Shown: positions 1,719-45,900 of the stretch, piece after piece
How positions within the stretch are numbered: position 1 is the stretch's first letter
Layout: the number at the start of each line of letters is the position of its first letter
Virus record (IMG/VR): IMGVR_UViG_3300020045_003677
Span: 124,098 to 175,292 of that record
DNA from: a virus
Lineage: Duplodnaviria > Heunggongvirae > Uroviricota > Caudoviricetes
Length of the DNA stretch: 51,195 nt
Reading direction: 5' to 3' (one strand)
Position numbers and translations under genes: made by a program
Notes under the pieces: generated by a model
What the model was told of the DNA's origin: nothing
The model's database searches: none
Seen by the model: the letters and a program-made list of their open reading frames with translations, nothing else

Positions 1719-1719
1719 T

Positions 1720-27053: not shown

Positions 27054-30000
27054 TTAAGATTTGACAGAATTTATAAGTTCTGACGCTGATGTGAATGTGT
27101 TATAGGCACCGACGGTTTGAGGAACTTTTAAGAAGGATTTCATAGCGGCTTTCTCATCTCCTGTGATCAGAGAAGTAGCTGCTGCAATGGCGCTTCCTGC
27201 TGTTGTGAGAGCCATATCAATACCTGGGAACACTGTGTCTCCCATTGTGCTGGTGGCTTTCCAGATTGCCATATCACTACTAGCATTAGAGTAAGCTCCT
27301 TCTAAAGCTTTACCTACAGTTGACCCAAAGAATTCCGGATTTTCTGATTTCATAAATGCTAGCAGAGGTGCTAACATAGCTACGAATAAGAATAGATCCG
27401 CAAATAATTTACCCAGGTTCTCTAACTGAATATCGGTTGGATTGGGAATTCCCTTAAACTTAGCAATCTCTCGCATAAGCCCACCTACCGACTCCAATAT
27501 ACCTTCATGAGGTATTCCTGTCCACTTCCAGTATCCACCATCTTCTAACTCTGTGTCATCTATCCACTCCATTTTTCCACGAGCAATACTCATATCAGTC
27601 GGAGTCCAATAGTTAGCAGCTTTCTGCTGGAACCATCCCTTGTACCTCAACATAGACCTACCAATAACAGACTTCTCTGCCATGGTGGTTTTATCCTTAT
27701 TAAAGGACCCATACAATTTAGTAGAATAGAACTTCATCGAAGTTAATTCATTAGCTGTAAGAGGCAGTAACATGGCTCCATCGTCCCCTATCATTCCTTC
27801 CTTGTCCAACTCTTCGCGTATAGTTTTCCACAACGCATACTTTTTCTTTTCTGCTTCTGTAGTCGGAGGTTGTGTCTGTTTACCATCACTCAGTGATTTG
27901 TTCTCCGGATCATACACATAGAATCTATCATCTAGTGTTTCGTCGTACTTCCAGTTTGGTTTTGCATCAGTACCAGTATTAATGTAGGCCTTATCAATTC
28001 CCAAGTGATGTACTTCGGCTAAGGCTGCTAGTGTTATAGAACTGGTGAAGAATAACTGGTTTAAGTAGAACATTGGTCTGGTCTTGAATACTTTAGCCTT
28101 ACCAACATCATACCATTCTTTCTGTTTTAACTGGGCGCTATCTGCATAGGTCATACCCAAATCGTACATGATCTGGAACCCTTTAGACTGCATATTAACA
28201 TCAACTGCAGCATCCAAGTTCTTAGCAGCCCAAGCAACATCCGACGGATAGAAGTGGACTGTTTTACCTTTAGACACCAGGCCGGTTAATGAGTTGGCTA
28301 GCATAGCAGATGTTATCTGGAATGTACCAGTAAATGCCTCAGTCATAGCTTGTTTAATGGATGCACTAAAGTATATGGTAGAAGTCATCTTACTGACCTG
28401 GTCAGCATACCTTGTGATAGGCTCACTTTCCTCTTTACCATACTTGTTCTTTACAACCATATTGGTCCATTCTTTAAGGTATTCAACAGTAGATTCTGCT
28501 TTAATATCCTTGTTTGATTCTTGTCTATCCTCAATCACATTATACAATGCATCGTGAATTACTAGGATATTACCCATATGCTCTGCTTCACTAGCAGTTA
28601 CAGCAAGGTTAACAAGTATAGCTGCAAGGTTTGTTTCCACATCTCTCTTAGGAATTACATTCTGTGTATTGTTGGAGATACCTAAAGCATCTTCACGAGA
28701 ACGTGAATGTTGTACTCCTTCATTACCAACCTGAGACGTGAACTTATCAGCCCCAGTGAACTCAAAGTCATTGGCCAGCTGTGGGTCGTAATTAGCCTTC
28801 TGCATACTCTTTACGTTCTGTTTAAGAGCATCAGTCCAGTTAGATATAGATTCGTATGATTTAGAATCAAACATACTCTTAGAGGCTCTAATAACCGGTA
28901 CCAAACCTTTAGACCATAGGTCACCATTCTTGAAGCCCTCCACCTTATTAGATGGTAATAGCTTGGTATAGTACTGCTCTATTGTACTGTTGAAGTATTC
29001 GATATAAGCTCTGGTTGCTGGGCTGTTTCTTAACGATGGGTCATTTGCATCTTTTAGTTTCATCCAGCTCTTTTCGTTTCCAGACTTAAAATCCGGATCC
29101 ATCATAGCTAATGCAAATGCTTTCTTCTCGTTACCACCGTTCTCCAATATGAATTCCCTTAGTAATTCATCATGCTTATCATAGAACTTTTTAAAGTCTT
29201 TTCGTACATTCTCTGACGCAGTATTCATAAGAACCTGAGACCTTTCAATAAGAACGTCTCCAGTACCCATCGCAGTTCTACCAAACTGACGACTTAATCG
29301 CTGTCTAATCAACTGTTTAGAGTTTATATTATACTGGTTCATTTGTACGATTGCCCTATCTATTGCTAGAACCTCAGGCATCTTCTTGACATTGGTTCCA
29401 GGGTGTAATCCCATAAGCAATGAGATCACTTCGTTTCTGTATTTACTAGTAGCAACCAGAGTTTCGTATGAAACAAGATCCCCATTCTTTATTCTCTGTA
29501 GTCTTTCCTCTAAGATTCTACCAATCTCGATAACCCCTTTATTCTTGAACTCTCCTTGTCTCTGAGCAATCAGTTTCTTTAGGTGATCGATGTAAGAGAA
29601 CCCGAACGCAGCCGGCGCAACGTTAGACGGTTTGTCTAGTAGGTCTGCTACAAACTGTGGGATGTCTTCTTTAGGAGCAAACTTTCGTATTAGCTGTAGT
29701 TTGGCTATCTCCTTAGGCATGTATGTGGTAGTGATAGATGCAGAGTCACTGGACACTATTGATGCCACCTTCATCTCTTCTATCAGTACTGGTTTGCTAG
29801 TCAATGACTTAAGCTTCAATGCAGCTAATCCAAGTTTCATTGATGCGAAGTCATGCATGTAGTTCTGTTCGATTACCTCAGATCCCGAGCGTGTGTCTCT
29901 TACCGCTTTATCGTTCGCGTACTTACCAAATACAGTAGTTCTCTTATCTGTCTTATCGGTAGAGAACTTTATACTTGAGTTGAGGACCGGCATAACTGAT

Positions 30001-31757
30001 AACAAAGAGATAGCACCGGTCAGTTTATTTTCTGCAACCAGTACGTCTGCACCTACATCAGCTAGCGATGGGTGATATCTATCTGCGCGAACTAGTGTAT
30101 GGGTTTCTCTATTGATAGACCCAAGTAGATTAGCTACGATAGTTTCTCTACCACCAAGATTATGCTGTTTATGCTTTCCTTCAACATTGAAGAATTGTAT
30201 AATATTGTTAGCTAAGTGTTTCTGTTCTTCTTTGATCTGTCTGTAGTCGTTTAACAGTACAGTCTCTATTTCTGAATCAGTTTTATCATCGGTGTAGTAC
30301 CGTCTTTGATCTCTACCTAAATCAGGATTATCTCTGTTAAAGAACTTCTTCCCTCTATCGTCGGTATTTATCTGAGCCTTTTTACGTTGTACATATCCAG
30401 TAGAATTATCTCTTGTATACAGAAGGTTGATCATATCATCCTTAGATGCAAGGTCCATAATAAACTTGTGTGTACCGTTTGCCCGGGCCTGTTCGATCAT
30501 AGCTTTAGTAGCCTCAGTATCCTGTTGTAGTAAATGATGCAATGTAGGGTTAGCTATAATCTCCATCTTGTTGGCATTCATACCAGTATAGATCCACTCA
30601 CGTTCTTTTGACTGAGTGTTAGTGATTCTAGCCATATCTCCAGGAAGCATGATAACATATGTCTGTGGTACCTTATATCCATTCTCTTCTAGAATAGCGG
30701 CATAGTAAGACATTTGAACTCGCGCACTGTTAGCTGGAGTATCAAATAGATTCTCACTTTCAAACTCTCCACCAAACTTACCTGTTCCAACCTTATTCAT
30801 ATTAAGTGCAGATTCTGCAGACTTAGTCTTGAAGTCGAATACGTACGCATTACCATGATTGGTAATCATAACTAAGTCGGCGGTTCCGGCCGGTTTCCCA
30901 GGAACATTGTCACTTGACAACTTTAACTCGGGTAGTAACTGAAATGCAGGAGCTTCTCCATATCTCAATTTCTCTTGATTTACTATCTTATGAATCTGAT
31001 TAAGAACCTTTTGTGCAATCTCGTTCATGTTATCAGCTTGGATAGCAACCATACCCTTGAACTTCTTATCCTTAGATAGTGTTTCTCTAGCTGCTCTTAA
31101 CAGAACTGAATTACTGACATACGTTTCTTTACCGGTTTTAGCTTCAACATCTAGTACCTGTTTGTTGTACTCAACTATAAACTGCTGCATAACCGCGTGG
31201 AAATACTCCCCCCATTTAGCGGAAGCAGCCCATTTATCTTTGAATTGTGTCTGTGCTACTTGCTCTAGGTAGTCCTCTTCTTGGGTAGACATGAACTCAT
31301 CGTAGATTTTGTCGACTACTAATTGTTCTGGTCTTGAGTCTTCGGACTCATACCCTTTAATACGTAGTGCTTCTTTCTCAATATATCTTCTAGCTTGATC
31401 TAAGGCAATACCATCTGTGTCGAATTCACTTTTTTGAACTCGATATCCTGTTTCTACGTCTGGCTCAGTCTTTAGATTCTTAACCAGGTTGGTAATACGA
31501 TTATGTAAATTCCCAGATGTCTCATTAAGATACTGGGATTCGTCAGCGTTCAATCGTAGTTTTGCTGACTTTGTAATCAGCTCATCAACAGATAGGACAT
31601 TGCCCATACTGTCGGTGCTGAACTTAGCATTAGTGCTAAGCATGTATTCTATATAGGCTTTAAGAGCAGCTTCATGCCCTTCTTTCTTCAGTGTCTCGTA
31701 ATATACAGGTGAAGGATTACCATCAATATCGTAGTAAACGGTGTTACAAATAGCCAT
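27054..31757 (-). CDS. Giant putative virion-ejected protein with a PD-(D/E)xK (RecB-like) nuclease domain and hydrophobic C-terminal helices
   Basis: AGTADLV...VFDFKT...QMSYYAAIL. C-terminal LFADLFLFVAMLAPLLAFM. Located next to the RNAP gene. Confidence 0.75.
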   Translation of the reverse strand: MAICNTVYYDIDGNPSPVYYETLKKEGHEAALKAYIEYMLSTNAKFSTDSMGNVLSVDELITKSAKLRLNADESQYLNETSGNLHNRITNLVKNLKTEPDVETGYRVQKSEFDTDGIALDQARRYIEKEALRIKGYESEDSRPEQLVVDKIYDEFMSTQEEDYLEQVAQTQFKDKWAASAKWGEYFHAVMQQFIVEYNKQVLDVEAKTGKETYVSNSVLLRAARETLSKDKKFKGMVAIQADNMNEIAQKVLNQIHKIVNQEKLRYGEAPAFQLLPELKLSSDNVPGKPAGTADLVMITNHGNAYVFDFKTKSAESALNMNKVGTGKFGGEFESENLFDTPANSARVQMSYYAAILEENGYKVPQTYVIMLPGDMARITNTQSKEREWIYTGMNANKMEIIANPTLHHLLQQDTEATKAMIEQARANGTHKFIMDLASKDDMINLLYTRDNSTGYVQRKKAQINTDDRGKKFFNRDNPDLGRDQRRYYTDDKTDSEIETVLLNDYRQIKEEQKHLANNIIQFFNVEGKHKQHNLGGRETIVANLLGSINRETHTLVRADRYHPSLADVGADVLVAENKLTGAISLLSVMPVLNSSIKFSTDKTDKRTTVFGKYANDKAVRDTRSGSEVIEQNYMHDFASMKLGLAALKLKSLTSKPVLIEEMKVASIVSSDSASITTTYMPKEIAKLQLIRKFAPKEDIPQFVADLLDKPSNVAPAAFGFSYIDHLKKLIAQRQGEFKNKGVIEIGRILEERLQRIKNGDLVSYETLVATSKYRNEVISLLMGLHPGTNVKKMPEVLAIDRAIVQMNQYNINSKQLIRQRLSRQFGRTAMGTGDVLIERSQVLMNTASENVRKDFKKFYDKHDELLREFILENGGNEKKAFALAMMDPDFKSGNEKSWMKLKDANDPSLRNSPATRAYIEYFNSTIEQYYTKLLPSNKVEGFKNGDLWSKGLVPVIRASKSMFDSKSYESISNWTDALKQNVKSMQKANYDPQLANDFEFTGADKFTSQVGNEGVQHSRSREDALGISNNTQNVIPKRDVETNLAAILVNLAVTASEAEHMGNILVIHDALYNVIEDRQESNKDIKAESTVEYLKEWTNMVVKNKYGKEESEPITRYADQVSKMTSTIYFSASIKQAMTEAFTGTFQITSAMLANSLTGLVSKGKTVHFYPSDVAWAAKNLDAAVDVNMQSKGFQIMYDLGMTYADSAQLKQKEWYDVGKAKVFKTRPMFYLNQLFFTSSITLAALAEVHHLGIDKAYINTGTDAKPNWKYDETLDDRFYVYDPENKSLSDGKQTQPPTTEAEKKKYALWKTIREELDKEGMIGDDGAMLLPLTANELTSMKFYSTKLYGSFNKDKTTMAEKSVIGRSMLRYKGWFQQKAANYWTPTDMSIARGKMEWIDDTELEDGGYWKWTGIPHEGILESVGGLMREIAKFKGIPNPTDIQLENLGKLFADLFLFVAMLAPLLAFMKSENPEFFGSTVGKALEGAYSNASSDMAIWKATSTMGDTVFPGIDMALTTAGSAIAAATSLITGDEKAAMKSFLKVPQTVGAYNTFTSASELINSVKS

Positions 31758-31777
31758 AGTATATATTGTTTCTTTTT

Positions 31778-31788
31778 ATTATAGTAAA
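31778..31788 (-). promoter_or_regulatory. Putative phage promoter (TTTACTATAAT) overlapping a terminator U-tract
   Basis: Exact 11-mer on the minus strand, 20 nt before ATG 31757. Confidence 0.5.
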
Positions 31789-31812
31789 AAAGCCCGAGAT
31801 AATTCCCGGGCT
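31786..31812 (-). terminator. Intrinsic terminator after the RNAP gene
   Basis: AGCCCGGGA-ATTA-TCTCGGGCT-TTTTT on the minus strand. Confidence 0.8.
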
Positions 31813-31821
31813 CTTAGTTGA

Positions 31822-34800
31822 TTATACACAGACTCGCTTAATAAACCCTTTCTCAGTTAACAGATCTAGCACCTGTTTATAGTCAATCATTGCTCCCTTA
31901 CGAGATTGTGCGATTAACTGCTTAGTTTCATTAGAGAAGTCTTTTAGCATTGAGCCCTTACCATAGGCTAGCTCGCTGCCGAGTTTGTCTATTATTGACC
32001 CAAGAGAGTCAGTAAGTGTTAGGTCTAGTTTATCTTCACTAACCCCAAATGCCTTGTTAAATATACCCTTAAAGAAATCCAGTATCTTTCCAAATACTGT
32101 GGACCCTTTAGATGTTAGATCAAGTAATGCAGTCAGATGTTCATTCTCTGATGCTGTTCCCATCATATGTGCAGATACCAGCGATACAAATACTTCTTCA
32201 CCTAATTCGAACCTGGTAATATCCTTGTAGGTCTTAGCCATAGATTCAGCTAGTGGATGTTCTAACGAATGCTCTATCAACTGGTGATACAGTTCCGGAT
32301 CCTCTAGTTTAAGGTGTTGCATATAAATATGCATGTACTCATGTATTGGAGTATCGAGAGTCATTCGCTCCTGGTTGAAGATTACTTCACCATTCATTAC
32401 AAATGCTTTAACTCCTGGCCTGCTATAATGTGCTCCGAATGTCTCCTCTATTTGAGCAGTACTCATACGAGAGAAGTTACTTCCCGGGAACCTATCATTC
32501 AGAACATTTATCAGACTGTTTAGAACATCAGGAGAAGCTTCTCTACTGAACTTATTTCTAAGATCGTTAGGTACTTCATGTTCCATACTGAAAGGGGAGT
32601 ATCCTTTAGGCTTAACCTCTTTGTTAGTGATTACTCTACTAACCAGTTCTGTAGAACCATCTGGGCGACCTTTAGTTTCTTCTCCACCAATATACACATC
32701 CAGACTACCACCCTTCTTCAATAACGTATCCTTGACCAATTTCTCGAATGAGTCGTTGGTAACTCCCATCAATCGCATAAGCTGTTGTGCCTGTCCCCAT
32801 GATGTGTTATCTAAAAGTGTCTGATCTTTAAATGCTTCGATAGCTATAGATGGGGCCTTGCCGGCAACCAAATCCTTGGTAGTCTCTGGTGTAAGTTTAG
32901 CGCCCTCAAGAGATTTGAACCTATCTTCGATAATATTCTTACCCTTGTACAGAGTAATCAATTTCGATACGATACTACTCTGAGTATCAAATATGTCGTT
33001 TGTCTCTTTAATAATAGCTGCTGCAGCTCTACGCTCTCTACCAGTGTATAAATGGTTAAGTTTATCCAAGTCAAATGTCTCGAATTGTTCGAACACTGCA
33101 TTAGACAGGTACTGTTGCTTTAATGCTTCGAACTGATTATTCAATGCAGTTTCTGACATATTGAACTGTTTAGCAGCATCTAGACCGTCTATAACAGGTT
33201 TGATATTAGCAACATTAAGTCCACCATACATGTTCCTAGCTTTACCAATCCTTGATGGACTTATGGTAACGTTGTTAGTTGGAACAGATCCCTCTACTTT
33301 TCTATCATAGAGAACTCCATTTAAAGTAAAGAATCCATGGCTTACGTCTGACTTCAACTTATCTTTGATTGTTGAATAGCGTTTTCCAATCCTATGCTGA
33401 CTAAGTTCTAGTCCATCGGTACTACCGGCTAATAGGAATTGTTTTGACACTATTTCATACGCACCATTGTCGCGTTTAATCAGATACTGTTCACCTTCAA
33501 AGTTTGTATTAGAAGCAATATGTAGAGATTTGGATAGGTCCTTTTTAAATCTATCTATAAAGTACTTATCAACATAGGATATGATCTTTGCTTTAACTGG
33601 CTCTCCTGACGGAGTTACTTCTGGAAGTGTGGTTTCCCATCCTTCATCGAATCCAGTATCAGTGATCATACCTGTTTGATTTACACCAGAGAATGGAATT
33701 ACTAGACTAGGTATTCTCTGTACCATTGGGATCCACAACTTAATGAATTTATCCCATTTATAAATAAGTCCAGTTTCTTTACTCCTGATAATGTCGTCCT
33801 TTATACCATTCTTTGACATCTTACCTTTAGTAATACCTTCTGTATGAAACAGTTTTTCGTTTGCATCCAGGTATGTACGACGTCTGTGAACCTCTTCAAA
33901 TTCACCGTCGTTGTCAAAGAAATCATCTCCTACCTCACTGCCATAGTCAAAGAAGTCCTCAGTTATTTGCTCTTCATTGTTTACTGCTTGTTCATATGTA
34001 CCTATGTTATCCTTACTGGTAGATAATGCCTCTATGAATATTGGGTTATTATATTTAACAATATCCTTATTATTAGAGTTTAACGCAATAGCTGATATGG
34101 CGTCTGCATTATTCTTTATGTATCCAGAGAAGTCCACATATTTTTCAGGGTCATACAATGCAATAAATGATCCACTCGCATAACTACCTTTATTGGTAAT
34201 TAAACTATATAGAAACAGAGCATCGTATAGCTCACGGTTACTTTTCTTCAAAGCGGATAATCCAACTTTAAGTTCTGCAAAACGATCTGCTGTTACATTG
34301 TGCAAATTAGGCCCTTTAAGAATAGGTACTCTAACCTGAGTAATGTAATCGACTGTAGAATCCTGTGCCGGTATAGACGACAAGAAGTGGTTATCTGCAC
34401 CAAAGTTTGCTGCCTGATTTACTGCTTCTGGTAAGTACTGAATGAATTCGTATCTACCGCCAATACTAGTATCTGATGTCATCGGTGAAGTAGCTATTGA
34501 TAGGTCGAATGTTTTACCGTCGATCACAAACAGCTTCGTTACATCTTTCAAGTAACCTTCTACCCCAATACCATAGATTAGGTTCTGTATTCCTTTGTAG
34601 TCTTTATCAGTTACCTTACGTTTAAGTCTAGGTGCCTTAGCAGTCATGTTGTCAATGATCGTTTCTACAGTAGAGTCTACTTTTGATACTACATTAACTA
34701 ACTCTTTGGCCTTGAACATAGCCTCATAGTAACCGAAGTAGTGTGAGTTTTTAGATAGAACAAATGGTACGTTAATACCAGTTCTCTGGGTATCGAATGA

Positions 34801-37800
34801 TTTGATAATATCATGCATGTACATTCCACCATCACCACCATCTTTAACTGCTCTACTTGCACTTTTAATAAACCTCTCGAAATCAAATGCAGGTTTGCCT
34901 CCAGTGATATCGTTAAGTCTGGCCTCAATTCCACTAATGAACTTCCAACCTTCGAATGCGCTATTCTTAAGACCTTGGTTGATTGACAATAAGCTGGATA
35001 ACAATCCAAACTCTTCTGTCATTTTAGCGAAGGTAAATAGCTGTCTGAATGGGTCACTAACATATTCTCTTAGTTCCTTTTCACCAGCACCTAGAGGTAC
35101 ATCGGGTTGCATGGTTTCCAATATAGGAAGCAATCTAGCAAACCCACCACCATCTTTTTGAGTATCACCAACTTCATCAATCTTTCTGATGAGTCCACGA
35201 ATATCTCTGATGTCATTATAGGTTTTGGTTCCGATTTTAACAGTACGAGGTCTAGCCTTAGGGTCGGTATGCCCAACAAGTTGTAGAGCATATTTCAAGT
35301 CAATACCCATTCTAACCATCGTAGAGATGATGGAACTGGTTGCTGTTGTAGCATTGATCTGACCTAAGATAAGTTCTTTAGCATTATCGGTAGCAGCTGA
35401 TAGAAGCTCTGATAAATCTTCCCAAGCCTGTTCGTCAACGTTAGCATTATTAGATGCATGGATTGCGTCAACATACTCTGATAGGATAGCTATCTGCTCT
35501 TCTTCTGTCTCAGCATTCTTAAGCTTGTCTAGCCCCTCTTTTGCTTTAATACTAATACCTTTACCTTCTCCTACATACTTACCTGAGTTAGCAATAGTAG
35601 AACTTTCGGATGTAAGCTCTCCAGTCTTTAAGTCAAAGAACTGAACTGCATCTTGTCTAATACCAAGCTTCTCTGATTGAGTAATGTTTAATCCACTATT
35701 ACTCTTGAATTTGATGTACTCTCCTTCAGATGAAGGGTCGCTAGTAATGGTCGCGAAGTATGTTGCAAAATAACCTTTTAAGTCGGAAGCAAATATACCG
35801 ATACCACTCTTACCATCCATGTTAAGCTTTTCATACTTGAACATATCGGCCGGGTTAAATGGAGATGCATGCTCTCTTAGTTTAAGAATATCCTCAACGG
35901 ATTTAGATTTAACTGCTTGAGAAAGATCTGGTTCGGTTTTAGCCTGTTTAGTTTTATCCATAGATACAGGAGTATTGGCCTCAATAGCATTCTTTGGAGA
36001 CTTAAATACTGCTGTGATATTGTGTACAATGAAGTTTTGTATTGCTGATTTAAAGTAAGCATTAGCCTCTTTTGATGTCATACCTTCGCTCCATGTATTG
36101 AATTTATCCATACTTATCTGTCCGTTGGCATCTAAGAATGGTTTCCAGTCTATAAGAACTCCGTCCTCGTCAAAGGCCCAAGTCATCATATTCTGCTTAT
36201 CAATATCGTAGTCAGCACCGGTCATCTTCAACATCTCAAGTGGACCGTAACATGAGTTACGACTAGAGAACACAAAGTTCTTAATCTTACCAATGGTACC
36301 AGACTGTTTACCTTGAGCAGGAATACGAGCTGTAATAAACTCTAGTGATGTAGTGAATCCAGAAGCCAGTTTAGCTGCTTTCTTATTTATCAGCTGAGTA
36401 ATAGGCCCATTAGGAAACTCTCCTTGTTTGAACACTCTATTAAGAATATCAGCATCTGTGGTTTCCACTGTTACTGTAGACTCTTTAAGTTCGGTTAGCA
36501 ATAGGTTTAGAGCTTTTGAATACTCGGACCCACTAGGAGAGTTCTTTACTTGCTTTTCCATACGATCTATTGCTATTGCAACTGATGGTGCTGTACGGAA
36601 AGCATTGAAGTTGGACTCATACAATTTAGATACCCTCTGTTTGAAGAACTTAATCATTGACTTATTCTGAGCCCCTTTAGCAGCCTTGAATTCCGTCCAT
36701 GCAGCCTGTTGTTCAGGTGTCATCTGTTGGAAATAAGGTGAAGATGGAAGACCTATTATAGTGTTTATGGTACTGAAATTAGTATTCAGTTGTCTATAAA
36801 TATCTTCATTATCAATTAGAGAGATCTCCTTACCACCCTTAGAATATGTTCCAGGTTTAATAACACCAAGTGAAATTAGTTTATTGTAGTCCGGATCAGT
36901 AGCTCCAATAATATCATAAAGTGAGTCGGTATCACGAAGTAAGAATGTCTTCTTATGCATACTTGGCATATAGAACTCTGCCGGTTCACTTGTCCATCCC
37001 TCTTCCTGTAACAGGTTGTATAATGGTTTCTCGAACCTTTTAATAAATCCAGGATCTGTTGTCCTAGACTTGATAATAAATTCGATATCAGCAGTAGTAT
37101 CTGGGTTGTTAGCTAGTGCAGCATCTGCTTGTGCTAATTCAGTATTCGTAAATACTTCTCTGATTGGAGCGCCTTCCTCATTGTTACCATTAAAGTAATA
37201 GTATCTGCGTAGGTTTCTAGGTATTTCATCACCTGGTTTAAGAAACTTGACTGCTTGGAAAGCTTTATACTCTTCAGTATCTTTGATGTTAGTTATAGTA
37301 CCATCAGCATTGTGCTTTCTATACTGAGTCCACTGTAGTCTGTTAGAAGACCCTCTTGAGTTTCCTAATCTGTACTCGGTGTTATCTTGTACAAATCCTT
37401 CTACTAAACTATCCACATCTTCTGGATTAGTACTGGCTATCAATCGTCTTAGTTTTGAATACTGTATCTTGTCTCCAAGTTTAAGATTCATTCCTAACAT
37501 CATAGCTTCATAAGCTGGATTAACGATGGATATTGTCAGTATGTCACTTGGTACCAGATCAGCCATTACGGGAGGTTTAAGCGCAAATTGTGGATCGCCT
37601 ATCACTGCACTATATAATGGGTGTGTTGGGTTAATAGATATTTTATTGATGTCATCTCTAGTGAAACCATCTTTACCAGCTACAGTGAACGTCTTGATGA
37701 AGTCATGTGATGGTGCTACGATGTATTGTCCTCCAGGGAATGTCATTCTTACAGTGTTTCTATTGAAGTCTGAATTCACACTTGATGTAGCTACCGGCAA

Positions 37801-40800
37801 TATCTGTTTGATATCAAATGATAACTGGTCTTTGTATGTATCAGAGACTAGATCTCCAGCAATACCCGGGGCTTCCCTGGTAGCTAAAGATTTTTTCAGT
37901 ACTCCTGTTAAATATTCAAAAGTAGCTCTAGTTACCAAGTCATTATAGGCTGCAGTACCTTTAGTTATTTTAGAATCTGTTGCAATCTTATCAGCTATTG
38001 CTGCTATCTTTGCATCCACTTCTTTGGTAAAGATCTGACTTGAGATACCTACTGCTTTGTACACAGCAATTACCTCTGCCATAGTATTACCCTCACCAAC
38101 AATAGCAGACAGAATCTGGGTGATCATTGGAATGTGGTTTGGATCTTCTGGGTCTTCGTTATGATTAGCTGTTGCTTTAGATCCGTGACTAGTGTCCGGG
38201 TTGTGGTCGGCTTGTAGAATAACACAATGGTATGTGTTATCAACTTCAGACCAACCATTAAAGTTCTCATCACCGTATACATATCCAGGATCATTGATAC
38301 TAGTATCTGATAGTAACTGCTTACTACCTGTCTTTTCCTGTGATTTAAACCCTACCTTTTCCACATATGAATCCCGTACTGGGAATGTAGCAGTATCCAA
38401 TGACATGTCATTAGGTGATACAGAATGATTTCCGATCACATTAGCTACCATATTCCAGGCATTCTTATTATCGATAGATCCGAAGTATTCCCACAAATGT
38501 TGTAGATCTTGGAACTGCTTCTGAACCTTGTCTGTTTTCAATTCTCCGTTAGCAAGTCTTGTTTTTAAAGCAATTCCCGCTTGTTGTTTTTCAAATTCAG
38601 TTCCCTCACGTAATGGACGTAATAATGATTCCATAGTAACCACAGTACCTGTAGCGGTGTCTAGAACCATTTCCAATCCGTAACCTCCATTCAACCACAT
38701 CTCTTCTGTTATCATAGTTGAGAAATCTCCTCTTACTGGGCGTCCTGTAGCCGGGTCGACTTTAGGAACCATCATAAATGGGGTGTTGAATCTAACTGCT
38801 GAGTTCATTTTGACAAGCATGTTGTATAGTTCAGGAGTACCTTTCTTGGTAAGTTCTGTTGAGAACATATCAAAAGTGGCTTTCTTCTGGAATCTGTAGA
38901 ATCCCTTAGCATCTACTTCGTTGGTAATGTCCTTTACAGGAGCACCAGTAGGACTATAGTTAGATTCCTCTCCACCTAGAGAATTGGCTAGTTTAATGAA
39001 ATATAATGGGTGACCTATCTGAACAGCGTCATAGATATCCTGACCATCTTTACCTGATTTACCAAGTACTGTAAGGTCAAAACTAGGGTCTTCTATAGTT
39101 ACGTTTTTGCTAGACCTACCTAATAGTACTCCAGGCTCGTGTGCTCCGGCAAGACGTGGATGTTGTCCGGTACTACTCATACCAGCATTACGTTTAACCT
39201 GATCAATGAACTGTGTACTACTTGTTACAGCCATGTCATCGAATATCAGTGCCTTAGCTTTGACATCTGGTGACAGAGATTTATTATGTAGAATAGCTGA
39301 GTATAAAATCTTTGATTTATCTTTGCTTGAACCTACCGCATCAATTACTTCTTGAACAGTTGCTGATGATAAAGGTTTAACCTCACCATTCACTGTAGTA
39401 ATAGTCAATGCCTTAACGTTATTTAACGTAGCTTTGGCATCAATTTTACCATTGGTAACCACAGTGATATTGGATGCTTTCGGTAGTTTGAATTGTGCAA
39501 ACCCCCCGGTATGAATACGAAGTAGTTCTCCGCCTAGAGTATTACTATTGAAGAAGAACGCATCCAACAAGACCTCTTTACCACTCTCGGCATTCAGTCC
39601 TGCATTAGGAAGCTTTTCCGTTAATACCTTCAACGATTGTTCAGAGATCTTAGTATATCCTTCATCTGTTAATGCACGTTTAAACATCTTCAGATTGGTA
39701 TTTACAAATTCTGTAGCAAGAGCTGCATCGTTAAATAACGCAACATTGTTCAGAACATGCTGTGGGATAACCGAAATACCTTCTGGTCCAATTGCTATCA
39801 TAGCATTCTTAACCAAACCAGAACTAGCGGATAACCCTCTATGAGTTGTAACTTCTCCAGTTGTTGGGTTAGTCCATGTAAACTCTCCGTAAGGAATTTG
39901 TGCTGCACGAAGTTTAGCATCAATGTCGAACAGTGTATCAGTAGATGAGATATCAACTGGGAAAGGTAGTGACCTAACGGCTACTAACCACCCTTGTTTA
40001 ATCTCTTCAGCTAAGTTATTCCAGTAAGTCTGTTGACCAGCAATCATACGATTTCGTAGAATTGTAGTATCCAGACCTGTCCCATTAGAGGTAACCGGGA
40101 AGAAGAATTTCTCATCCGACTGCATCTTTACCAATGGAATATTGGTTTTATCTGAGAATACCCCAAACTGAAGCATTGTCTCAGTAAAGTTACTGTTTGC
40201 AAGAGTCTGTAAGAAAGCCTGTTCGATTTGTAGCTGGGCCTGTTCGTGAATAGTCATATCCTGATTCTTCTTTACAGTCTCTCCAACCTTAATACCAGTC
40301 TTAGTATAGAATCCGTCTATCTTTACTTCCGGTGCTGATCCTGTTAAGAACCCACCACGATGAATAGATGAAGGCTCTCCCATACGTTTAGCTAGAGTAG
40401 CACTCTCAGAGATTTTATTCTTTGGAGTTACGATAGCCATCTTATTACCACTATGGTCTTGAGCATACACCTTTCCATCTTCACCATACATTCCACGCAA
40501 ACTAGCTTCTAGAGCACGTTTGTAGCCATACATGGTATCTACTGGATCATACTTAAATGGATTACCGTAGGTAGATATAGTGTCTGATGTTATAAGAGAT
40601 AGGATATCACTAGTAGCTTTATTCATCTCCGACATTAACACTGTAGATAGTAAGAACTGCTCCAATGCGCGCTCTTGTTGTTCTGGCTGTTCCAACATTC
40701 TAGATGAACTGGAAAACTCAACCATAAAGCTATCGTTTAGTACTGCTGGACTGACCGGGAATCTGCTGTAAATTGATCTTAATTCAGAAAATGATAGCTG

Positions 40801-42939
40801 ACTTTCTGGAAACTCTAGAACAGTGAATGGAAATCCACCTTTGAATTTACCATTTATAATAGGGTTTAAGCGTACTTTATACTTAACATTGGTACCTTCA
40901 ACACTTATCTGGAACAATCTTTCATTAGATCCTGAAGTAAGTGCTATTACCCTTAGGTCTTTTAATGCATCCGGGTTGGTAAATACAGCACCGGCTTGCT
41001 CAATAGCTCTTGGGTATGAAGCCATTTCAGCTTTATACTTAGAGATGATATTGTATGACTTGGTATTAGTAGCTCTACCAACACCGTTAGATGACATGAA
41101 GCTTTCATGTTTAACAGTACTGTTTAAAGACGTAATAATACCCGACAATGATTTAGTAAGATTTTTGTTACTGGTATCGAATGGAGCAGCTTTTCCCTCA
41201 TCATGCTTTTCAGCCCATGCCATGTAGTCATCTAAGTCTACTGCTTCTTTAGAATTCTTATCCACTATACCTTTATATGATCTATAGGTTCTGGTTACCT
41301 CTTTACCCTTTTCTAACATTGAAACAGAGTAGTCTTCTGGAGAGAAGAATCTGTAGTATATAGATGCCAGGATAGGAGACGTAGCCTCATTTGGGTGGCT
41401 AAGAAACTCATTCTTAATATCTTCAGCAAGACCCAGTGCGTCTCGTCTAAAGCCTTTTTCTGTTATAACGTCGGCAATTAACTCAAAGTCAACAGCTTTC
41501 AGATATGGACTATCAGCGTTCTTTGTGATAGACGTAACTTTCCCACCTTCCACAACTACGTTTAATCGCGGAGTAGTCCTCTTATGGACAAAGATAGTTG
41601 CTGAATCCTGATCGGCCGCAGCTACTGTAGTATCATTAGCTACGTAACCTACGCGATATTTAGATTTATACCCTTTAGCTAACTGTGGATAGAAGTGCTT
41701 TAAAATCTGTACATAGTTGTTAGACAGCATGTATGAGAACAATACTTCTTTCATATTCTCATCGAAATGCTTGTCAGCTACTGACAAGGTACTGAACCTA
41801 TTATCTATCTGGTCTTCATCTGTTGGCAGTTCTTTTGCAGTTCCGTCCTCATTTATTGAGTTATCATTGAAATAGTCTACAGACAATCCCTGCATGTCAG
41901 AACGTATGGCCTCTACGGCTTCGTCGAATGATGGAGCAGAGATTATGAATAACTCCTGTTGGTTACCACTAGCCTGCATTCTACCATCTGTTATGAGATT
42001 GTGCTTATACACTGTATAAAGTACATTACCATCTTCATCCTCCCCTTCTGAGTCAATGCTTACATTCTGTGGTAATGCACCTTCCTGGAAGTAAAGGAAC
42101 TTACTTGATGTTCCATCTTTTCTATTACTAGCATTGATGGTACCCTGGGCTCTGTTCTCATAGTACTTTACCATGATATCGTTGATGTTACCGAGAATAG
42201 CTCTCGATGAATGCTCAACTGATGAGAACCCAATAATATTACCGTCAGCGTCTACTTCTTGATCAATCCACCCTTTAGCTACTTGATCGTGTAAGAAGTT
42301 AATGAATTCTCCAAATAGGTGCATACGTGATTCTCCCATCATATCCTGGATAACCGAGGATATACTACGAGTATCAGAATCTTTAACACTACTTAGATCG
42401 AAGTCTGCATATTTAGTAGTATTAATAGGAGTGTCCTGGCTTGCACCTGGACCCTCTGAACTCTCTTGGTCTTCTATTACACCACCTTCTTCAGCTGATT
42501 CAGATGTAGGCACTTCCGGTATTTCCACAGTAACTGCAGAAGCTTGACCATCGGATGTATTATCTTCAACGTAAGATTGCAATACAGAATTAAGGATGTC
42601 ATCATTTACTGTGATAAACCTTGTTACCGTAGCATCTTTCTTTTTTAGACGTTCATCAGCAACTATAGCCATCTTGCTTCTAGCAATGTTGAGCATAGCT
42701 ACCGCTCTAGACCAATCCTTATCGAACTGAATACTCTGTTCTGACTCAGGATTTTCTAGGTACTCACGTACTACTTCTTCACCATTTTCTGGGTATGCAA
42801 GAGTAACAAATCTAGTCAACAACTTCTTATGCATCTCTGCAACTATCTGTTGAGACTGCTGTGGGTCTATTGTCTTGTAGGTTAAATTAAGGCGAGCACA
42901 GAATAAATCTACGCCCGCCCATAAAGAAATACATTCCAT
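31822..42939 (-). CDS. crAss-like virion RNA polymerase (double-psi beta-barrel type, 3705 aa) with a C-terminal zincin domain
   Basis: ARIPAQGKQS and GADYDIDK (DxDxD metal motif, compare DFDID of phi14:2 gp66). C-terminal TPIHEYMH...GEE zincin. Confidence 0.9.
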   Translation of the reverse strand: MECISLWAGVDLFCARLNLTYKTIDPQQSQQIVAEMHKKLLTRFVTLAYPENGEEVVREYLENPESEQSIQFDKDWSRAVAMLNIARSKMAIVADERLKKKDATVTRFITVNDDILNSVLQSYVEDNTSDGQASAVTVEIPEVPTSESAEEGGVIEDQESSEGPGASQDTPINTTKYADFDLSSVKDSDTRSISSVIQDMMGESRMHLFGEFINFLHDQVAKGWIDQEVDADGNIIGFSSVEHSSRAILGNINDIMVKYYENRAQGTINASNRKDGTSSKFLYFQEGALPQNVSIDSEGEDEDGNVLYTVYKHNLITDGRMQASGNQQELFIISAPSFDEAVEAIRSDMQGLSVDYFNDNSINEDGTAKELPTDEDQIDNRFSTLSVADKHFDENMKEVLFSYMLSNNYVQILKHFYPQLAKGYKSKYRVGYVANDTTVAAADQDSATIFVHKRTTPRLNVVVEGGKVTSITKNADSPYLKAVDFELIADVITEKGFRRDALGLAEDIKNEFLSHPNEATSPILASIYYRFFSPEDYSVSMLEKGKEVTRTYRSYKGIVDKNSKEAVDLDDYMAWAEKHDEGKAAPFDTSNKNLTKSLSGIITSLNSTVKHESFMSSNGVGRATNTKSYNIISKYKAEMASYPRAIEQAGAVFTNPDALKDLRVIALTSGSNERLFQISVEGTNVKYKVRLNPIINGKFKGGFPFTVLEFPESQLSFSELRSIYSRFPVSPAVLNDSFMVEFSSSSRMLEQPEQQERALEQFLLSTVLMSEMNKATSDILSLITSDTISTYGNPFKYDPVDTMYGYKRALEASLRGMYGEDGKVYAQDHSGNKMAIVTPKNKISESATLAKRMGEPSSIHRGGFLTGSAPEVKIDGFYTKTGIKVGETVKKNQDMTIHEQAQLQIEQAFLQTLANSNFTETMLQFGVFSDKTNIPLVKMQSDEKFFFPVTSNGTGLDTTILRNRMIAGQQTYWNNLAEEIKQGWLVAVRSLPFPVDISSTDTLFDIDAKLRAAQIPYGEFTWTNPTTGEVTTHRGLSASSGLVKNAMIAIGPEGISVIPQHVLNNVALFNDAALATEFVNTNLKMFKRALTDEGYTKISEQSLKVLTEKLPNAGLNAESGKEVLLDAFFFNSNTLGGELLRIHTGGFAQFKLPKASNITVVTNGKIDAKATLNNVKALTITTVNGEVKPLSSATVQEVIDAVGSSKDKSKILYSAILHNKSLSPDVKAKALIFDDMAVTSSTQFIDQVKRNAGMSSTGQHPRLAGAHEPGVLLGRSSKNVTIEDPSFDLTVLGKSGKDGQDIYDAVQIGHPLYFIKLANSLGGEESNYSPTGAPVKDITNEVDAKGFYRFQKKATFDMFSTELTKKGTPELYNMLVKMNSAVRFNTPFMMVPKVDPATGRPVRGDFSTMITEEMWLNGGYGLEMVLDTATGTVVTMESLLRPLREGTEFEKQQAGIALKTRLANGELKTDKVQKQFQDLQHLWEYFGSIDNKNAWNMVANVIGNHSVSPNDMSLDTATFPVRDSYVEKVGFKSQEKTGSKQLLSDTSINDPGYVYGDENFNGWSEVDNTYHCVILQADHNPDTSHGSKATANHNEDPEDPNHIPMITQILSAIVGEGNTMAEVIAVYKAVGISSQIFTKEVDAKIAAIADKIATDSKITKGTAAYNDLVTRATFEYLTGVLKKSLATREAPGIAGDLVSDTYKDQLSFDIKQILPVATSSVNSDFNRNTVRMTFPGGQYIVAPSHDFIKTFTVAGKDGFTRDDINKISINPTHPLYSAVIGDPQFALKPPVMADLVPSDILTISIVNPAYEAMMLGMNLKLGDKIQYSKLRRLIASTNPEDVDSLVEGFVQDNTEYRLGNSRGSSNRLQWTQYRKHNADGTITNIKDTEEYKAFQAVKFLKPGDEIPRNLRRYYYFNGNNEEGAPIREVFTNTELAQADAALANNPDTTADIEFIIKSRTTDPGFIKRFEKPLYNLLQEEGWTSEPAEFYMPSMHKKTFLLRDTDSLYDIIGATDPDYNKLISLGVIKPGTYSKGGKEISLIDNEDIYRQLNTNFSTINTIIGLPSSPYFQQMTPEQQAAWTEFKAAKGAQNKSMIKFFKQRVSKLYESNFNAFRTAPSVAIAIDRMEKQVKNSPSGSEYSKALNLLLTELKESTVTVETTDADILNRVFKQGEFPNGPITQLINKKAAKLASGFTTSLEFITARIPAQGKQSGTIGKIKNFVFSSRNSCYGPLEMLKMTGADYDIDKQNMMTWAFDEDGVLIDWKPFLDANGQISMDKFNTWSEGMTSKEANAYFKSAIQNFIVHNITAVFKSPKNAIEANTPVSMDKTKQAKTEPDLSQAVKSKSVEDILKLREHASPFNPADMFKYEKLNMDGKSGIGIFASDLKGYFATYFATITSDPSSEGEYIKFKSNSGLNITQSEKLGIRQDAVQFFDLKTGELTSESSTIANSGKYVGEGKGISIKAKEGLDKLKNAETEEEQIAILSEYVDAIHASNNANVDEQAWEDLSELLSAATDNAKELILGQINATTATSSIISTMVRMGIDLKYALQLVGHTDPKARPRTVKIGTKTYNDIRDIRGLIRKIDEVGDTQKDGGGFARLLPILETMQPDVPLGAGEKELREYVSDPFRQLFTFAKMTEEFGLLSSLLSINQGLKNSAFEGWKFISGIEARLNDITGGKPAFDFERFIKSASRAVKDGGDGGMYMHDIIKSFDTQRTGINVPFVLSKNSHYFGYYEAMFKAKELVNVVSKVDSTVETIIDNMTAKAPRLKRKVTDKDYKGIQNLIYGIGVEGYLKDVTKLFVIDGKTFDLSIATSPMTSDTSIGGRYEFIQYLPEAVNQAANFGADNHFLSSIPAQDSTVDYITQVRVPILKGPNLHNVTADRFAELKVGLSALKKSNRELYDALFLYSLITNKGSYASGSFIALYDPEKYVDFSGYIKNNADAISAIALNSNNKDIVKYNNPIFIEALSTSKDNIGTYEQAVNNEEQITEDFFDYGSEVGDDFFDNDGEFEEVHRRRTYLDANEKLFHTEGITKGKMSKNGIKDDIIRSKETGLIYKWDKFIKLWIPMVQRIPSLVIPFSGVNQTGMITDTGFDEGWETTLPEVTPSGEPVKAKIISYVDKYFIDRFKKDLSKSLHIASNTNFEGEQYLIKRDNGAYEIVSKQFLLAGSTDGLELSQHRIGKRYSTIKDKLKSDVSHGFFTLNGVLYDRKVEGSVPTNNVTISPSRIGKARNMYGGLNVANIKPVIDGLDAAKQFNMSETALNNQFEALKQQYLSNAVFEQFETFDLDKLNHLYTGRERRAAAAIIKETNDIFDTQSSIVSKLITLYKGKNIIEDRFKSLEGAKLTPETTKDLVAGKAPSIAIEAFKDQTLLDNTSWGQAQQLMRLMGVTNDSFEKLVKDTLLKKGGSLDVYIGGEETKGRPDGSTELVSRVITNKEVKPKGYSPFSMEHEVPNDLRNKFSREASPDVLNSLINVLNDRFPGSNFSRMSTAQIEETFGAHYSRPGVKAFVMNGEVIFNQERMTLDTPIHEYMHIYMQHLKLEDPELYHQLIEHSLEHPLAESMAKTYKDITRFELGEEVFVSLVSAHMMGTASENEHLTALLDLTSKGSTVFGKILDFFKGIFNKAFGVSEDKLDLTLTDSLGSIIDKLGSELAYGKGSMLKDFSNETKQLIAQSRKGAMIDYKQVLDLLTEKGFIKRVCV

Positions 42940-42953
42940 ATATTATTGTTTTA

Positions 42954-45900
42954 TTAACACATTGATGTAAATAAAGCGTCTACTACGTCCATGAAACCTT
43001 CGAAATTACTTCCGGCATGAACAAAAGCTGAACTAGCTATAAGAGCACTTTCGTCTGAGAATTTATCACTAACTTCGGCATACTTCTTTTCTCCACGGAG
43101 AACCTGGGTAACTGCTTCCAATCTATCTCCTACTTCACCTTGAACCTTTGTAAGAATCTTAGTGTATTCTGCTTTCACATCTTCGGAGAGATTAGCAAAT
43201 CCTGTTGATGCAAGAATTGCTGATGATAGGTTAGCTCCTTTGCCTGTAGTATCTACAGTGTCGATTGCCTTTCTGGCTTCTTTAAACTTCTGTTCCATTT
43301 CATTGTACATATTTCCCGGGAATACTGATTGCCATCCGGATAGCGTTATTTGTAGAGCATTTAAGGCCTGAGTCTTAGTAGTGGTATCAAGTTCTTGACT
43401 CACTATAAAGTCAATATCTCTAGAGAATTCCTCAACCCATTCCTGGGCGGTCTGAGTAGAGAAAGTAAGGTTAGCGATTGCATTCTTAACATTCTCATTC
43501 TCCATTAAGTTATTGTATAGGTCAGGATTAGCTGCTTTTAATTCTAACATAGGTGCACTCTCAAGAGGTATTGGGTAACTAACCAAAGCGTCATACATCG
43601 CGTAAGCAATAACTTCAGCTCTATTTAGGTTGTCTTTCTTTCCAAACAGATAAGGCTCTAATTCCGATTTCTGTTCGTCAGTACCAATAACATATGCTCT
43701 AAGTAATTCTGTCTTGTTGTAAGGATTAATAACCTCTGGGCTAGTAAACTTATGCAAAGACTCTATAGTTTGTTCTGTAGATAACTTAGGAGCAGGTATT
43801 GTGATCTTACCTTCTTTATGTGCCTGCACTATATTTCTGATATCATCTGTAGTTCCTACTACACCGGCATTCTTGGTATAGGCTGCAACTATAGGATCAA
43901 TATACTTATCAAGAAGTTTCTTTGGTTTAACTTTAGAAGCAAGTTCTCTAAGAGCATTGATTGTATCTTTCAGATATCTCTGGTCTGATATTGAAGCAAC
44001 CTCATCGAATATTGATAAATCGAGTATTGGGTTATCTTCCTTGATCTTTGCTACTATCTCTGAGTTAGGTCTTGGGAAATTACCATTCCTGATATCTTCA
44101 AATGACACTACCTTAGGAGTACTGAATCTGTTTATAATACCTTTTATCTTATCCAAAACTTCATTGTATCTGGTCTCAATAGTCTTCAGTACCTTAGTAC
44201 TTTTATTCTTTGATCCAGAAGCTTTAAGTGTATTAACAGCATTAACTGCCTGTGTACCTTTCTGTTTCAACCAAGCCTCAGTAGGAGTTTCGTTTGCAGC
44301 TATATCCTTTTCAAGATTGTCCACAATAGTATCCATCTGAGTTAATATGGTATCTACTTCTTTAGTATCTGCTACAGCTTTTGTAACTACTTGCTCTTTC
44401 TTAGCATCTTCAACTGACTGTATTAAGTTGTCTAGATTGAATGCTAGTGCAGAACTTCTGATATCCTTAACCGGAGTTGTTAGTCTAGACTCTAGGTCTA
44501 TACCTCCTGATAATGTACCCCAACTTGAGGTTTTACCCATTTTGGTCATAGAAGGAGGAACCTTGATTCCTAAGTTAAGAGTACCTTTAATTGAGTGATC
44601 TAACATTAAAGTGTCAAATAATCTCAATGTTTCCTGAGCAACTTCTGGTGTAGCATTCTTTAATAACAAGTTGAAGAACGATTCCATATTCAGCTTCATT
44701 GGTTGGAATTCTGATGAATGTCCTGCAGCTTTTGCTACCGAGCTTGGTATGAATATTAACGGTCTTTTGTTGATATTTAGAATAACCGGTTTCCCAGATA
44801 ATTCTGAAGTTACTAGTTTGAATGTTCCTGGTTCTAAGTTAGATGCGGGGTACGCATGATACCTAGTCATATCAACATCCGGAGTCTCTTCAGTTATTGC
44901 TGATGTTAACAAATCTGCCTTGTAGTTTCCCATGTTGGCATCCTTTGTCATCGTATCGATTATAGATAAAAAATGTGTAATTACAGGGTCATTAGCATCA
45001 TATTTTGATACCAAATCTTTAACAAAACCTTCCATTTTACTGTCGTCTAGTACCCTTATAACATTACCTTTTTCGTCCGTATTAGCCTTGCGAAGTTCCT
45101 TGATTCTTTCGAATTGAGTTCTATCTCGGCCCATAGATGGATTGTTAGCATCCATACGGTTAACATCTTTGATAGCTGTTGCAATATCAGTGAAGAAAGC
45201 TATGAGTCTTTTATTGACCGCAGAGTTTGATGGTATTGCATATCTATTGAACTCCTCTTTAGGAGTATTCTGATAGATGTTAGCTAATTCAGAGAATGTA
45301 GAATGTGGGTAATCCAGCATCAATACTCCAATACCATCTCTTAGAGATGCGACTGCACCTTCAATAGAATTATCTTTGGATTTAGTAGCAAACTCCTTTA
45401 TCTTATTCTCAAGTCCCATTACTACTGATGGATCCGATAGATCATACTTACCATTAGATGAGTACAATACGAATATCTTACCCGCAGTCTTAGCTCCCTT
45501 TTTACCGGGAACATCTTGCCTAAATACAAGTGGTGCTGAGAACGTCAGATCTTTTCTGTTGTTGTTTCTAGTATACCCCTTTTCATCATCTATATCAGTC
45601 TCATGCTTTGTAAGCGCCTTAAGTTCATTAAGTGTTATTGAGACGTTCTCAAATGATTTAGTGGTAATATTCTTTATACCTCTGGTTGCATTCCTGATGG
45701 TCTCCAGTCTAGAATATGTGTTATCAATATCAGGTAAGGAGTAACCAAGTACAGATGCGATATTACTTCTGAGTATGTTGATAGACTCATTATCGAATGT
45801 CTTAGCAGATCCCATCTTTATATCCAAAGTCATTGACTCAAGAGATTTCCTGATAGCATTGACTTCAGAGTATATTTCCTCATCACTACCGTTAACCTCA

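Follow-up and report, generated by a model that had tools for sequence, protein, structure and literature searches.

The 51,195-nucleotide stretch analysed here (the window) forms the final 51 kb of a circular 175,292-bp virus record (IMG/VR IMGVR_UViG_3300020045_003677, positions 124,098 to 175,292) that has a direct terminal repeat of 121 bp. Its right half carries three giant genes, A, B and C, in tandem on the minus strand, and the subject of this report is the placement of cysteine (Cys) residues at the ends of their products. Gene A (42954..51195), which codes for the first chain, specifies a giant P-loop/helicase-like putative cargo protein; its visible open reading frame (ORF; 42954-51125) yields 2,723 amino acids (aa) and is open at the window end. 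The gene crosses the end of the record and continues at its start (G000:C1:1-2526), giving a protein of approx. 3,539-3,548 aa in total. Gene B (31822..42939) encodes the middle chain, a protein of 3,705 aa that appears homologous to the crAss-type virion RNA polymerase (RNAP) core, and gene C (27054..31757) encodes the last chain, 1,567 aa long with an N-terminal PD-(D/E)XK nuclease domain. The genome also encodes a crAss muzzle protein (PF25731, above cut-off), and A-B-C come after the muzzle gene.

The three proteins are almost free of Cys, and most of the few that they hold lie at the ends facing one another. A script count found eight Cys in visible A, B and C, exactly the number counted by hand in the first-pass annotation: C738 and C2723 (the last residue) in A, numbered on the visible 2,723 aa; C3, C14, C1572, C2230 and C3704 (the penultimate residue) in B; and C4 as the sole Cys of C. 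The stretch of A that lies beyond the window, across the record end, adds none, and there is none at A's N end. The total is thus 8 Cys in 8,820 aa (0.091%) vs. 492 in 45,289 aa (1.09%) in the remaining ORFs of the genome, a twelve-fold difference. As that annotation had also claimed, five of the eight sit at facing ends (the last residue of A, C3/C14 and the penultimate residue of B, and C4 of C), the C end of the last protein has no Cys, and the limits given for the feature, 31746 and 42959, prove to be the outermost junction Cys codons. On the minus strand, the TGT codon for the last residue of A lies at 42957..42959 and precedes the TAA stop; Cys3 of B is encoded by TGT at 42931..42933 and Cys14, a second N-terminal Cys found in this subclade only, at 42898-42900; the TGT codon for Cys3704 (31828..31830) ends the conserved motif GF-I-x-x-V-C; and Cys4 of C is encoded by TGT at 31746..31748. 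Because the ATG of B is the first codon after an upstream in-frame stop and that of C is the seventh codon after such a stop, the N-terminal Cys positions do not depend on the choice of start codon. If the eight Cys were placed uniformly, the probability of finding at least five of them in the 56 residues at the four facing ends would be approx. 6e-10 (binomial), a value for which the 14-residue limit was set post hoc. Conservation among relatives is the stronger argument.

Conservation was followed first among close relatives. A word-indexed search yielded 22 homologues of B at 22-86% identity, and each of the 20 that are full-length has a Cys at position 3-8 and another in the last three residues, typically among 2-5 Cys per approx. 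3,800 residues. C14 is present in only four of the 20 (P0002, P0004, P0006, and P0010) and is replaced by Ser in P0005, which is 72% identical. When the ten loci around divergent B homologues (B identity 25-46%) were fetched, the order A-B-C, often followed by a further gene, D, was found in nine; the tenth, L011, has an A-B fusion. In every three-chain locus, the last 1-5 residues of A include a Cys, B carries one near both ends (at position 3-8 and in the last 1-3 residues), and C carries one at position 3-5 and none at its C end. The A-type C-terminal Cys, again within the last 1-5 residues, recurs in P0176-P0179. In L006 and L007, the four facing-end Cys are all the Cys there are in approx. 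8,900 residues. In alignment A1, C4 of C is an invariant column, as are the PD-(D/E)XK residues D294, D308, and K310; in the last domain of B, the terminal Cys (C249 of that domain) is likewise invariant, as are H78, E79, H82, and E127. Searches of other kinds were negative: the block found no match among 50,697 phage records by megablast or tblastn, its proteins found none in PHROGs, single-protein queries against IMG/VR for related loci returned no relatives, and a search for longer fused forms of B, confined to 4,387-5,000 aa, returned one further ordinary homologue and nothing else.

The C family offers the largest sample. An exhaustive profile search with the N-terminal region of C gave 102 long representatives with mutual identity below 50%. 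Every one of the 102 carries a Cys at position 2-7, which in 64 of them is the sole Cys, and the internal Cys rate is 0.051% over 175,227 residues. In forms that carry 300-1,700 extra N-terminal aa, the Cys is found at the true N end and not near the nuclease domain, and stand-alone nucleases of 230-300 aa that match the same profile are without an N-terminal Cys. Potential ligands near the Cys are rare: among the 102 termini, His occurs in six and a second Cys in none.

In B, the motif D-[FY]-D-x-D occurs as DYDID at residues 2243-2247 (window 36199-36213), and D351, D353, and D355 are invariant in alignment A4. A profile comparison (hhalign) of the catalytic region of B with the RNAP core of phi14:2 gp077 gave a probability of 94.9% and an E-value of 4.5e-8 over 313 columns, with the DxDxD motifs aligned. 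No direct match of B to known RNAP members was found in tblastn against phages, in PHROGs or Pfam, or in PDB, the last searched both by sequence and by profile; it is the profile-sequence comparison that makes B a probable homologue of the crAss-type virion RNAP. The last 250 aa of B contain an invariant HExxH...E (H78, E79, H82, E127; HEYMH at 32329-32343), i.e., a zincin-like domain approx. 170 residues ahead of the terminal Cys. This domain has no match in Pfam; its fold model has a predicted local distance difference test (pLDDT) value of 69, and its Foldseek matches are weak and none significant (E at least 0.23), several of them being zinc peptidases. C matches PF12705 with 24.7 bits against a cut-off of 22, and its PD-(D/E)XK residues D294, D308, and K310 are encoded at 30828-30878. 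A has a Walker A motif, GAYGTGKT (49002-49025), and weak Pfam matches below the cut-offs (SLFN-g3_helicase, 3.7e-4, and AAA_22); in its relatives, matches to AAA_30 and AAA_19 are weak or faint, except in the L011 fusion. From the position of the genes after the muzzle gene and from the avoidance of Cys, we infer that the proteins of this phage are packaged and ejected.

The same arrangement is found in canonical crAss-like phages, for which Cys positions were taken from GenBank records (a minus sign denotes counting from the C end). In crAss001, gp47 has a Cys at -3, the RNAP gp50 at 5 and -9, and gp49 at 5, those of gp47 and gp49 being the only Cys in these two proteins. In phi14:2, Cys is the last residue of gp078, stands at position 3 and at the penultimate position of the RNAP gp077, and at position 3 of gp076; the three proteins, 5,398 aa in total, hold no Cys besides these four, and GenBank notes that all three are structural proteins verified by mass spectrometry. 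DAC15 has Cys at -3 of gp61, at 5 and the last position of the RNAP gp63, and at 4 of gp62. In cr126_1, for which the first chain was not retrieved, the RNAP has Cys at 5 and at its last position and the last chain at 4. IAS has Cys as the last residue of gp058, at 5 and -3 of the RNAP gp055+gp056, and at 5 of gp057. The genes for gp055 and gp056 (L017 4019-13001) overlap, with ambiguous bases at the joint, and are likely one RNAP gene split by sequence errors.

In both crAss001 and DAC15, the gene for the chain whose sole terminal Cys is at the C end lies on the opposite strand, and the 1-2-1 pattern is intact. Of the original claim, which tied the Cys to termini adjacent in gene order, the facing-end rule therefore stands in the relatives, and adjacency of the genes turns out not to be essential; the rule is a property of the proteins and not of gene junctions. 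The facing-end Cys are encoded by both TGT and TGC, and the spacers between the genes range from -1 to 79 nucleotides. Because of the two codons, the variable spacers, and the opposite-strand first chain in some phages, selection appears to act on the residue, and a signal at the nucleotide level of the junction is ruled out.

A tabulation of terminal Cys in orthologues and of their pairing at junctions, which the first-pass annotation had proposed as a check, bore the claim out without exception. Across 22 modules, a Cys lies no more than 12 residues from the end in 73 of 73 junction-facing termini vs. 0 of 34 outer termini; the set includes the ten divergent relatives, crAss001, phi14:2, DAC15, IAS, Carjivirus, crAss002, FpV4, and Suoliviridae. 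Hidden Markov models of the N-terminal region of C and of the C-terminal domain of B from this clade do not match crAss001 gp49 or phi14:2 gp076, and what emerges across clades from these comparisons appears to be a shared terminal-Cys pattern rather than one-to-one orthology of the chains. The PD-(D/E)XK profile of C from this clade matches residues 1574-1872 of crAss001 gp47 (independent E-value 3.6e-6), a chain with a C-terminal Cys only. Thus, domains are shared out differently among the chains of different clades, yet the Cys rule tracks the polypeptide breaks.

Natural fusions offer a further test, one that the first-pass annotation had not anticipated. P0023 of L011 (4,237 aa) is a fusion of A and B, with a match to A over residues 18-592 and collinearity with B over residues 2423-4188; it has one Cys, its last residue, and the next protein also has one, C3. 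FpV4 gp32 (4,287 aa, with DxDxD and HExxH motifs) has a single, penultimate Cys, and the N end of gp33 reads M-A-C; Suoliviridae cr50_1, cr10_1, and cr52_1 show the same A-B-fused Cys layout as FpV4. The other joint is closed in Carjivirus LMMB, crAss002, and cr271_1, whose RNAP chain either carries a fusion annotation (LMMB) or spans 4,070-4,620 aa as one protein (B and C fused); here the first protein has a Cys at -2, and the fusion begins M-S-C and has no C-terminal Cys. The annotated start of crAss002 gp33 (L020 12088-12186) is probably 32 codons early; a start at Met33 gives M-S-C, as in Carjivirus LMMB and cr271_1. At a fused joint, then, both Cys of that joint are absent and the other pair is retained. 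Because exactly these two disappear, the fusions support heterotypic, head-to-tail pairing, and they disfavour a four-Cys cluster, pairing within B combined with A-C pairing, and independent roles of the Cys.

Several other devices were considered and discarded. A single shared four-Cys cluster is ruled out by the two-chain systems, which have two Cys. A split intein or trans-splicing would have no room for intein halves, with the Cys of A being its last residue and that of B standing at position 3, and no intein family was found in Pfam. A lipoprotein lipobox is likewise ruled out: the Cys, at position 2-8, comes right after Met and a few polar or basic residues, with no signal peptide of approx. 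15-25 residues.

Taken together, these observations suggest that A, B, and C are RNAP-associated cargo proteins, counterparts of crAss001 gp47/gp50/gp49 and of phi14:2 gp078/gp077/gp076, and that, as the first-pass annotation had proposed, each facing end is linked to its neighbour in head-to-tail fashion, with disulfides as the simplest bond; we put the probability of this reading at roughly 0.55. Selection would strip Cys from A, B, and C, as in other ejected phage proteins, and would keep exactly one approx. 1-11 residues from every end that faces another chain. The C end of A would pair with the N end of B, and the C end of B with the N end of C, and in each pair a disulfide between the chains would arise when the virion meets oxidising conditions. 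The separately translated proteins would thereby become one unbranched chain of approx. 8,800 residues, equivalent to a fused polyprotein or to the single-chain virion RNAP (vRNAP) of phage N4. With terminal links and no other Cys, such a chain would be linear and able to pass a narrow tail channel; the link would set a 1:1:1 stoichiometry and the order of exit, and it would be opened by the reducing cytoplasm of the host. Pairing, disulfide chemistry, threading, and release are all steps that we infer, and the literature basis for virion packaging, ejection, and partial unfolding concerns the proteins of relatives (PMC10172136; bioRxiv 10.1101/2020.03.07.982082). A wider form of the same idea, which we hold more tentatively and at somewhat less than even odds, is that in all crAss-like phages the RNAP cargo block amounts to a polyprotein cut into pieces, which a Cys pair at each new cut re-joins after translation; the whole would be ejected as one thread of approx. 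5,000-9,000 residues, and the host cytoplasm would free the pieces.

A number of points weigh against the disulfide-linked chain. The bond itself is a prediction from sequence. Fisher's exact test for facing vs. outer termini gives 1e-28, a value that overstates independence, the lineages being related. Two phages fit the rule conditionally: IAS does so only if gp055 and gp056 are one gene, the merged protein alone having the N-terminal Cys, and crAss002 gp33 does so only if Met33 is the true start. A co-fold of the last 250 aa of B with the first 130 aa of C scored 0.47 (best control, 0.08), with runs agreeing in at least 24% of contacts and a partner pLDDT of at least 45. Of 80 solved complexes, 58 attain the mark for such co-folds, as do 2 of 110 mismatched pairs, but those that do so with scores of no more than 0.60 are seven of the 80 complexes and both mismatches; the model thus lends weak support to B-C pairing. 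Assembly takes place in a reducing cytoplasm and many hosts are anoxic, and the timing of disulfide formation is therefore a difficulty. No Erv-type (Erv1/ALR) oxidase, thioredoxin, or glutaredoxin was detected in the genome, the Erv search being one without a positive control. Finally, N4 ejects its giant RNAP together with two Cys-free partners, and ejection as such therefore needs no link.

The bridge between facing ends could instead be a shared metal, for example zinc or iron in a clasp, or Cu(I) or the like in two-coordinate form, which would keep the rest of the chain model; this is unlikely in our estimate. A metal bridge could form inside a reducing cell. In the subclade of this phage, C3 and C14 of B together with the last Cys of A would supply three thiols, the zincin-like HExxH...E domain lies approx. 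170 residues before the terminal Cys of B, and the ferritin-like gene D follows C in most close relatives. However, C14 is confined to four of the 20 B homologues, D is without Cys in L006 and is itself absent in L007, L008, and the canonical crAss phages, and no conserved His or second Cys stands by the terminal Cys. Minimal systems have one thiol per terminus and two-chain systems two thiols in total, too few for a tetrahedral site, and the distance from the Cys to the end, which varies from 1 to 11 residues, better suits a flexible tether than a fixed site. A lone thiol at each terminus, with neither a conserved His nor a further Cys in its vicinity, favours a disulfide over a canonical metal site.

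Equally improbable is that each terminal Cys acts without the neighbouring chain, by forming homotypic dimers (A-A, C-C), by linking to the portal, the capsid interior, or small cargo, or by being modified. The tail proteins of crAss001 do form hetero-disulfides, and some small proteins of the cargo block have a lone Cys near one end with no obvious partner. Nonetheless, such independent roles leave unexplained why each break has strictly one C-terminal and one N-terminal Cys, why none of the 34 outer ends has any, and why both Cys are lost jointly in the fusions.

It is much less likely still that the C-terminal Cys of B is a cysteine switch, capping the zinc of the adjacent zincin-like domain and keeping a protease latent until ejection, with the other terminal Cys being unrelated. 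The invariance of H78, E79, H82, E127, and C249 in the last domain of B, the zinc peptidases among its best, though weak, fold matches, and the HExxH found approx. 200-220 residues ahead of a C-terminal Cys in LMMB, crAss002, and FpV4 are all in keeping with a switch. However, phi14:2 gp077, crAss001 gp50, and DAC15 gp63 have a C-terminal Cys and no HExxH in the chain, and the N-terminal Cys and the C-terminal Cys of A would still require another explanation. That the pattern arose by chance or as a by-product of low-Cys composition can practically be dismissed: the 14-residue limit was indeed picked post hoc, and a low Cys content is common to ejected proteins (those of N4 contain no Cys), but chance does not account for 73 of 73 vs. 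0 of 34 termini over lineages with undetectable sequence identity, for invariant Cys columns in alignments of 22-27% mean identity, or for a Cys that stays at the true terminus when domains are added.

Among known systems, the cargo block of crAss001 and phi14:2 is the closest, with giant proteins encoded after the muzzle gene and an identical 1-2-1 terminal-Cys pattern. According to Bayfield et al. 2023 (PMC10172136), virions of crAss001 contain gp47, gp49, and gp50, and the authors anticipate that the cargo unfolds in part for its passage, with packing and the interactions among the proteins determining the order. Unlike in those phages, the genome here is 175 kb vs. about 100 kb, the chains are approx. 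1.5 times longer, and there is no tblastn, PHROG, or Pfam link between the proteins here and the canonical ones. The PD-(D/E)XK domain is in C here and in gp47 in crAss001, and the zincin motif is in B here and in gp076 in phi14:2. In purified crAss001 particles, tail and portal-vertex proteins form inter-subunit disulfides (PMC10172136); those belong to a static assembly and involve internal Cys, whereas the Cys described here are terminal and lie in mobile cargo. Some phages fuse three cargo proteins into one polyprotein (Drobysheva et al., bioRxiv 10.1101/2020.03.07.982082; their phi14:2 g067-g066-g065 are GenBank gp078/gp077/gp076). The fused forms compared here (FpV4 gp32, cr50_1, cr52_1, the Carjivirus/crAss002 RNAP fusions, and P0023 of L011) keep the same domain order and have a peptide bond at the joint where separate chains would have the putative Cys-Cys link; in this phage, by contrast, each chain is a translation product of its own, and a terminator-like hairpin and a promoter-like box even lie between B and C.

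The N4 vRNAP system shares with this block a giant packaged polymerase and extreme Cys avoidance. N4 (L026, EF056009) has no Cys in vRNAP gp50 (3,500 aa), gp51 (644 aa), or gp52 (150 aa), and the neighbouring gp53 and gp54 have four and three. The N4 polymerase is thought to unfold and thread through a tail of 30-45 Å (PMC13434306). It differs from the proteins described here in being a single chain, its polymerase fold is unrelated, and it shows neither a terminal Cys nor any hint of inter-protein links. Because the N4 ejection proteins have no Cys, avoidance of Cys seems to be a general trait of ejected proteins, one against which the terminal Cys of the crAss-like proteins are conspicuous. 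A functional parallel is provided by two-chain AB toxins such as diphtheria toxin and the clostridial neurotoxins. In these, an interchain disulfide holds the chains together while one moves unfolded through a channel, and cytosolic reduction releases it. However, the toxin chains come from one nicked precursor, their Cys are internal and flank the nick, and there is neither homology nor a phage context.

The word cysteine is absent from Bayfield et al. 2023 and from Drobysheva et al., neither of which mentions disulfides among cargo proteins; the accessible part of the supplementary text of the former says nothing on gp47, gp49, or gp50, and full-text literature searches found no paper describing an end-to-end Cys link of cargo. 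The terminal-Cys rule suggests a previously undescribed end-to-end joining of cargo into one thread. Crassviruses are the most abundant phages of the human gut; their storage of several huge proteins in the capsid and the ordered delivery of these proteins have been an open question (PMC10172136; PMC13434306), and a 2026 study of N4 calls the crassvirus ejection proteins unresolved (PMC13434306). An order-wide sequence rule turns this question into a concrete and cheap hypothesis, i.e., that the cargo exits as a single thread stitched together by disulfides. From the rule follow predictions of the ends that are in contact and of the order of the chains; it exposes mis-annotated gene starts such as that of crAss002 gp33, and it would account for the free fission and fusion of genes in this block. 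If true, a thread made from a split polyprotein would represent a way of delivering proteins that has not been described in any virus.

The spacer between B and C (31758..31821, minus strand) contains a GC-rich, terminator-like hairpin and T-run (31786-31811) directly before ACTATAAT (31778-31785), and the same arrangement is found in most close relatives (L003, L004, L009, L010, and L012). Read as a terminator followed by a promoter-like box, it seems to imply that C is transcribed separately from B. Directly after C lies gene D (26401-27042, minus strand), which encodes a ferritin-like protein of 213 aa with six Cys (PF00210, 1.9e-17). D is kept after C in L003, L005, L006, L010, and L012; L007, L008, and the canonical crAss phages lack it.

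Smaller proteins of the block also have sparse Cys. Nine genes lie between the muzzle gene and A (G000:C1:2501-10201, minus strand, outside the window). The 138-aa gene adjoining the muzzle gene has four Cys, and the other eight (130-674 aa) have two in approx. 2,400 residues; to judge by this count, these eight small genes look as if they, too, were under selection against Cys. In other phages, smaller cargo-block proteins have a lone Cys near one end with no obvious partner, at -2 in LMMB QIN93289 (L019 1341-3926), at -8 in crAss002 gp30 (L020 1393-3066), at 5 in FpV4 gp30 (L021 3054-4850), and at 9 in a 679-aa protein of cr52_1 (L024 1949-3988). Such proteins might belong to the chain as additional members or be attached to something else.

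Genes in the plus-strand half of the window form a replication and nucleotide module, with a DNA ligase, a Cpn60-like chaperonin, a ribonucleotide reductase, ThyX, and homing endonucleases. The Cpn60/GroEL-like chaperonin (1696-3294, plus strand; PF00118, 1.1e-42) might serve as a folding aid for the giant proteins. Near its gene lie a GIY-YIG homing endonuclease (11658-12437) and a LAGLIDADG homing endonuclease (18487-19293).

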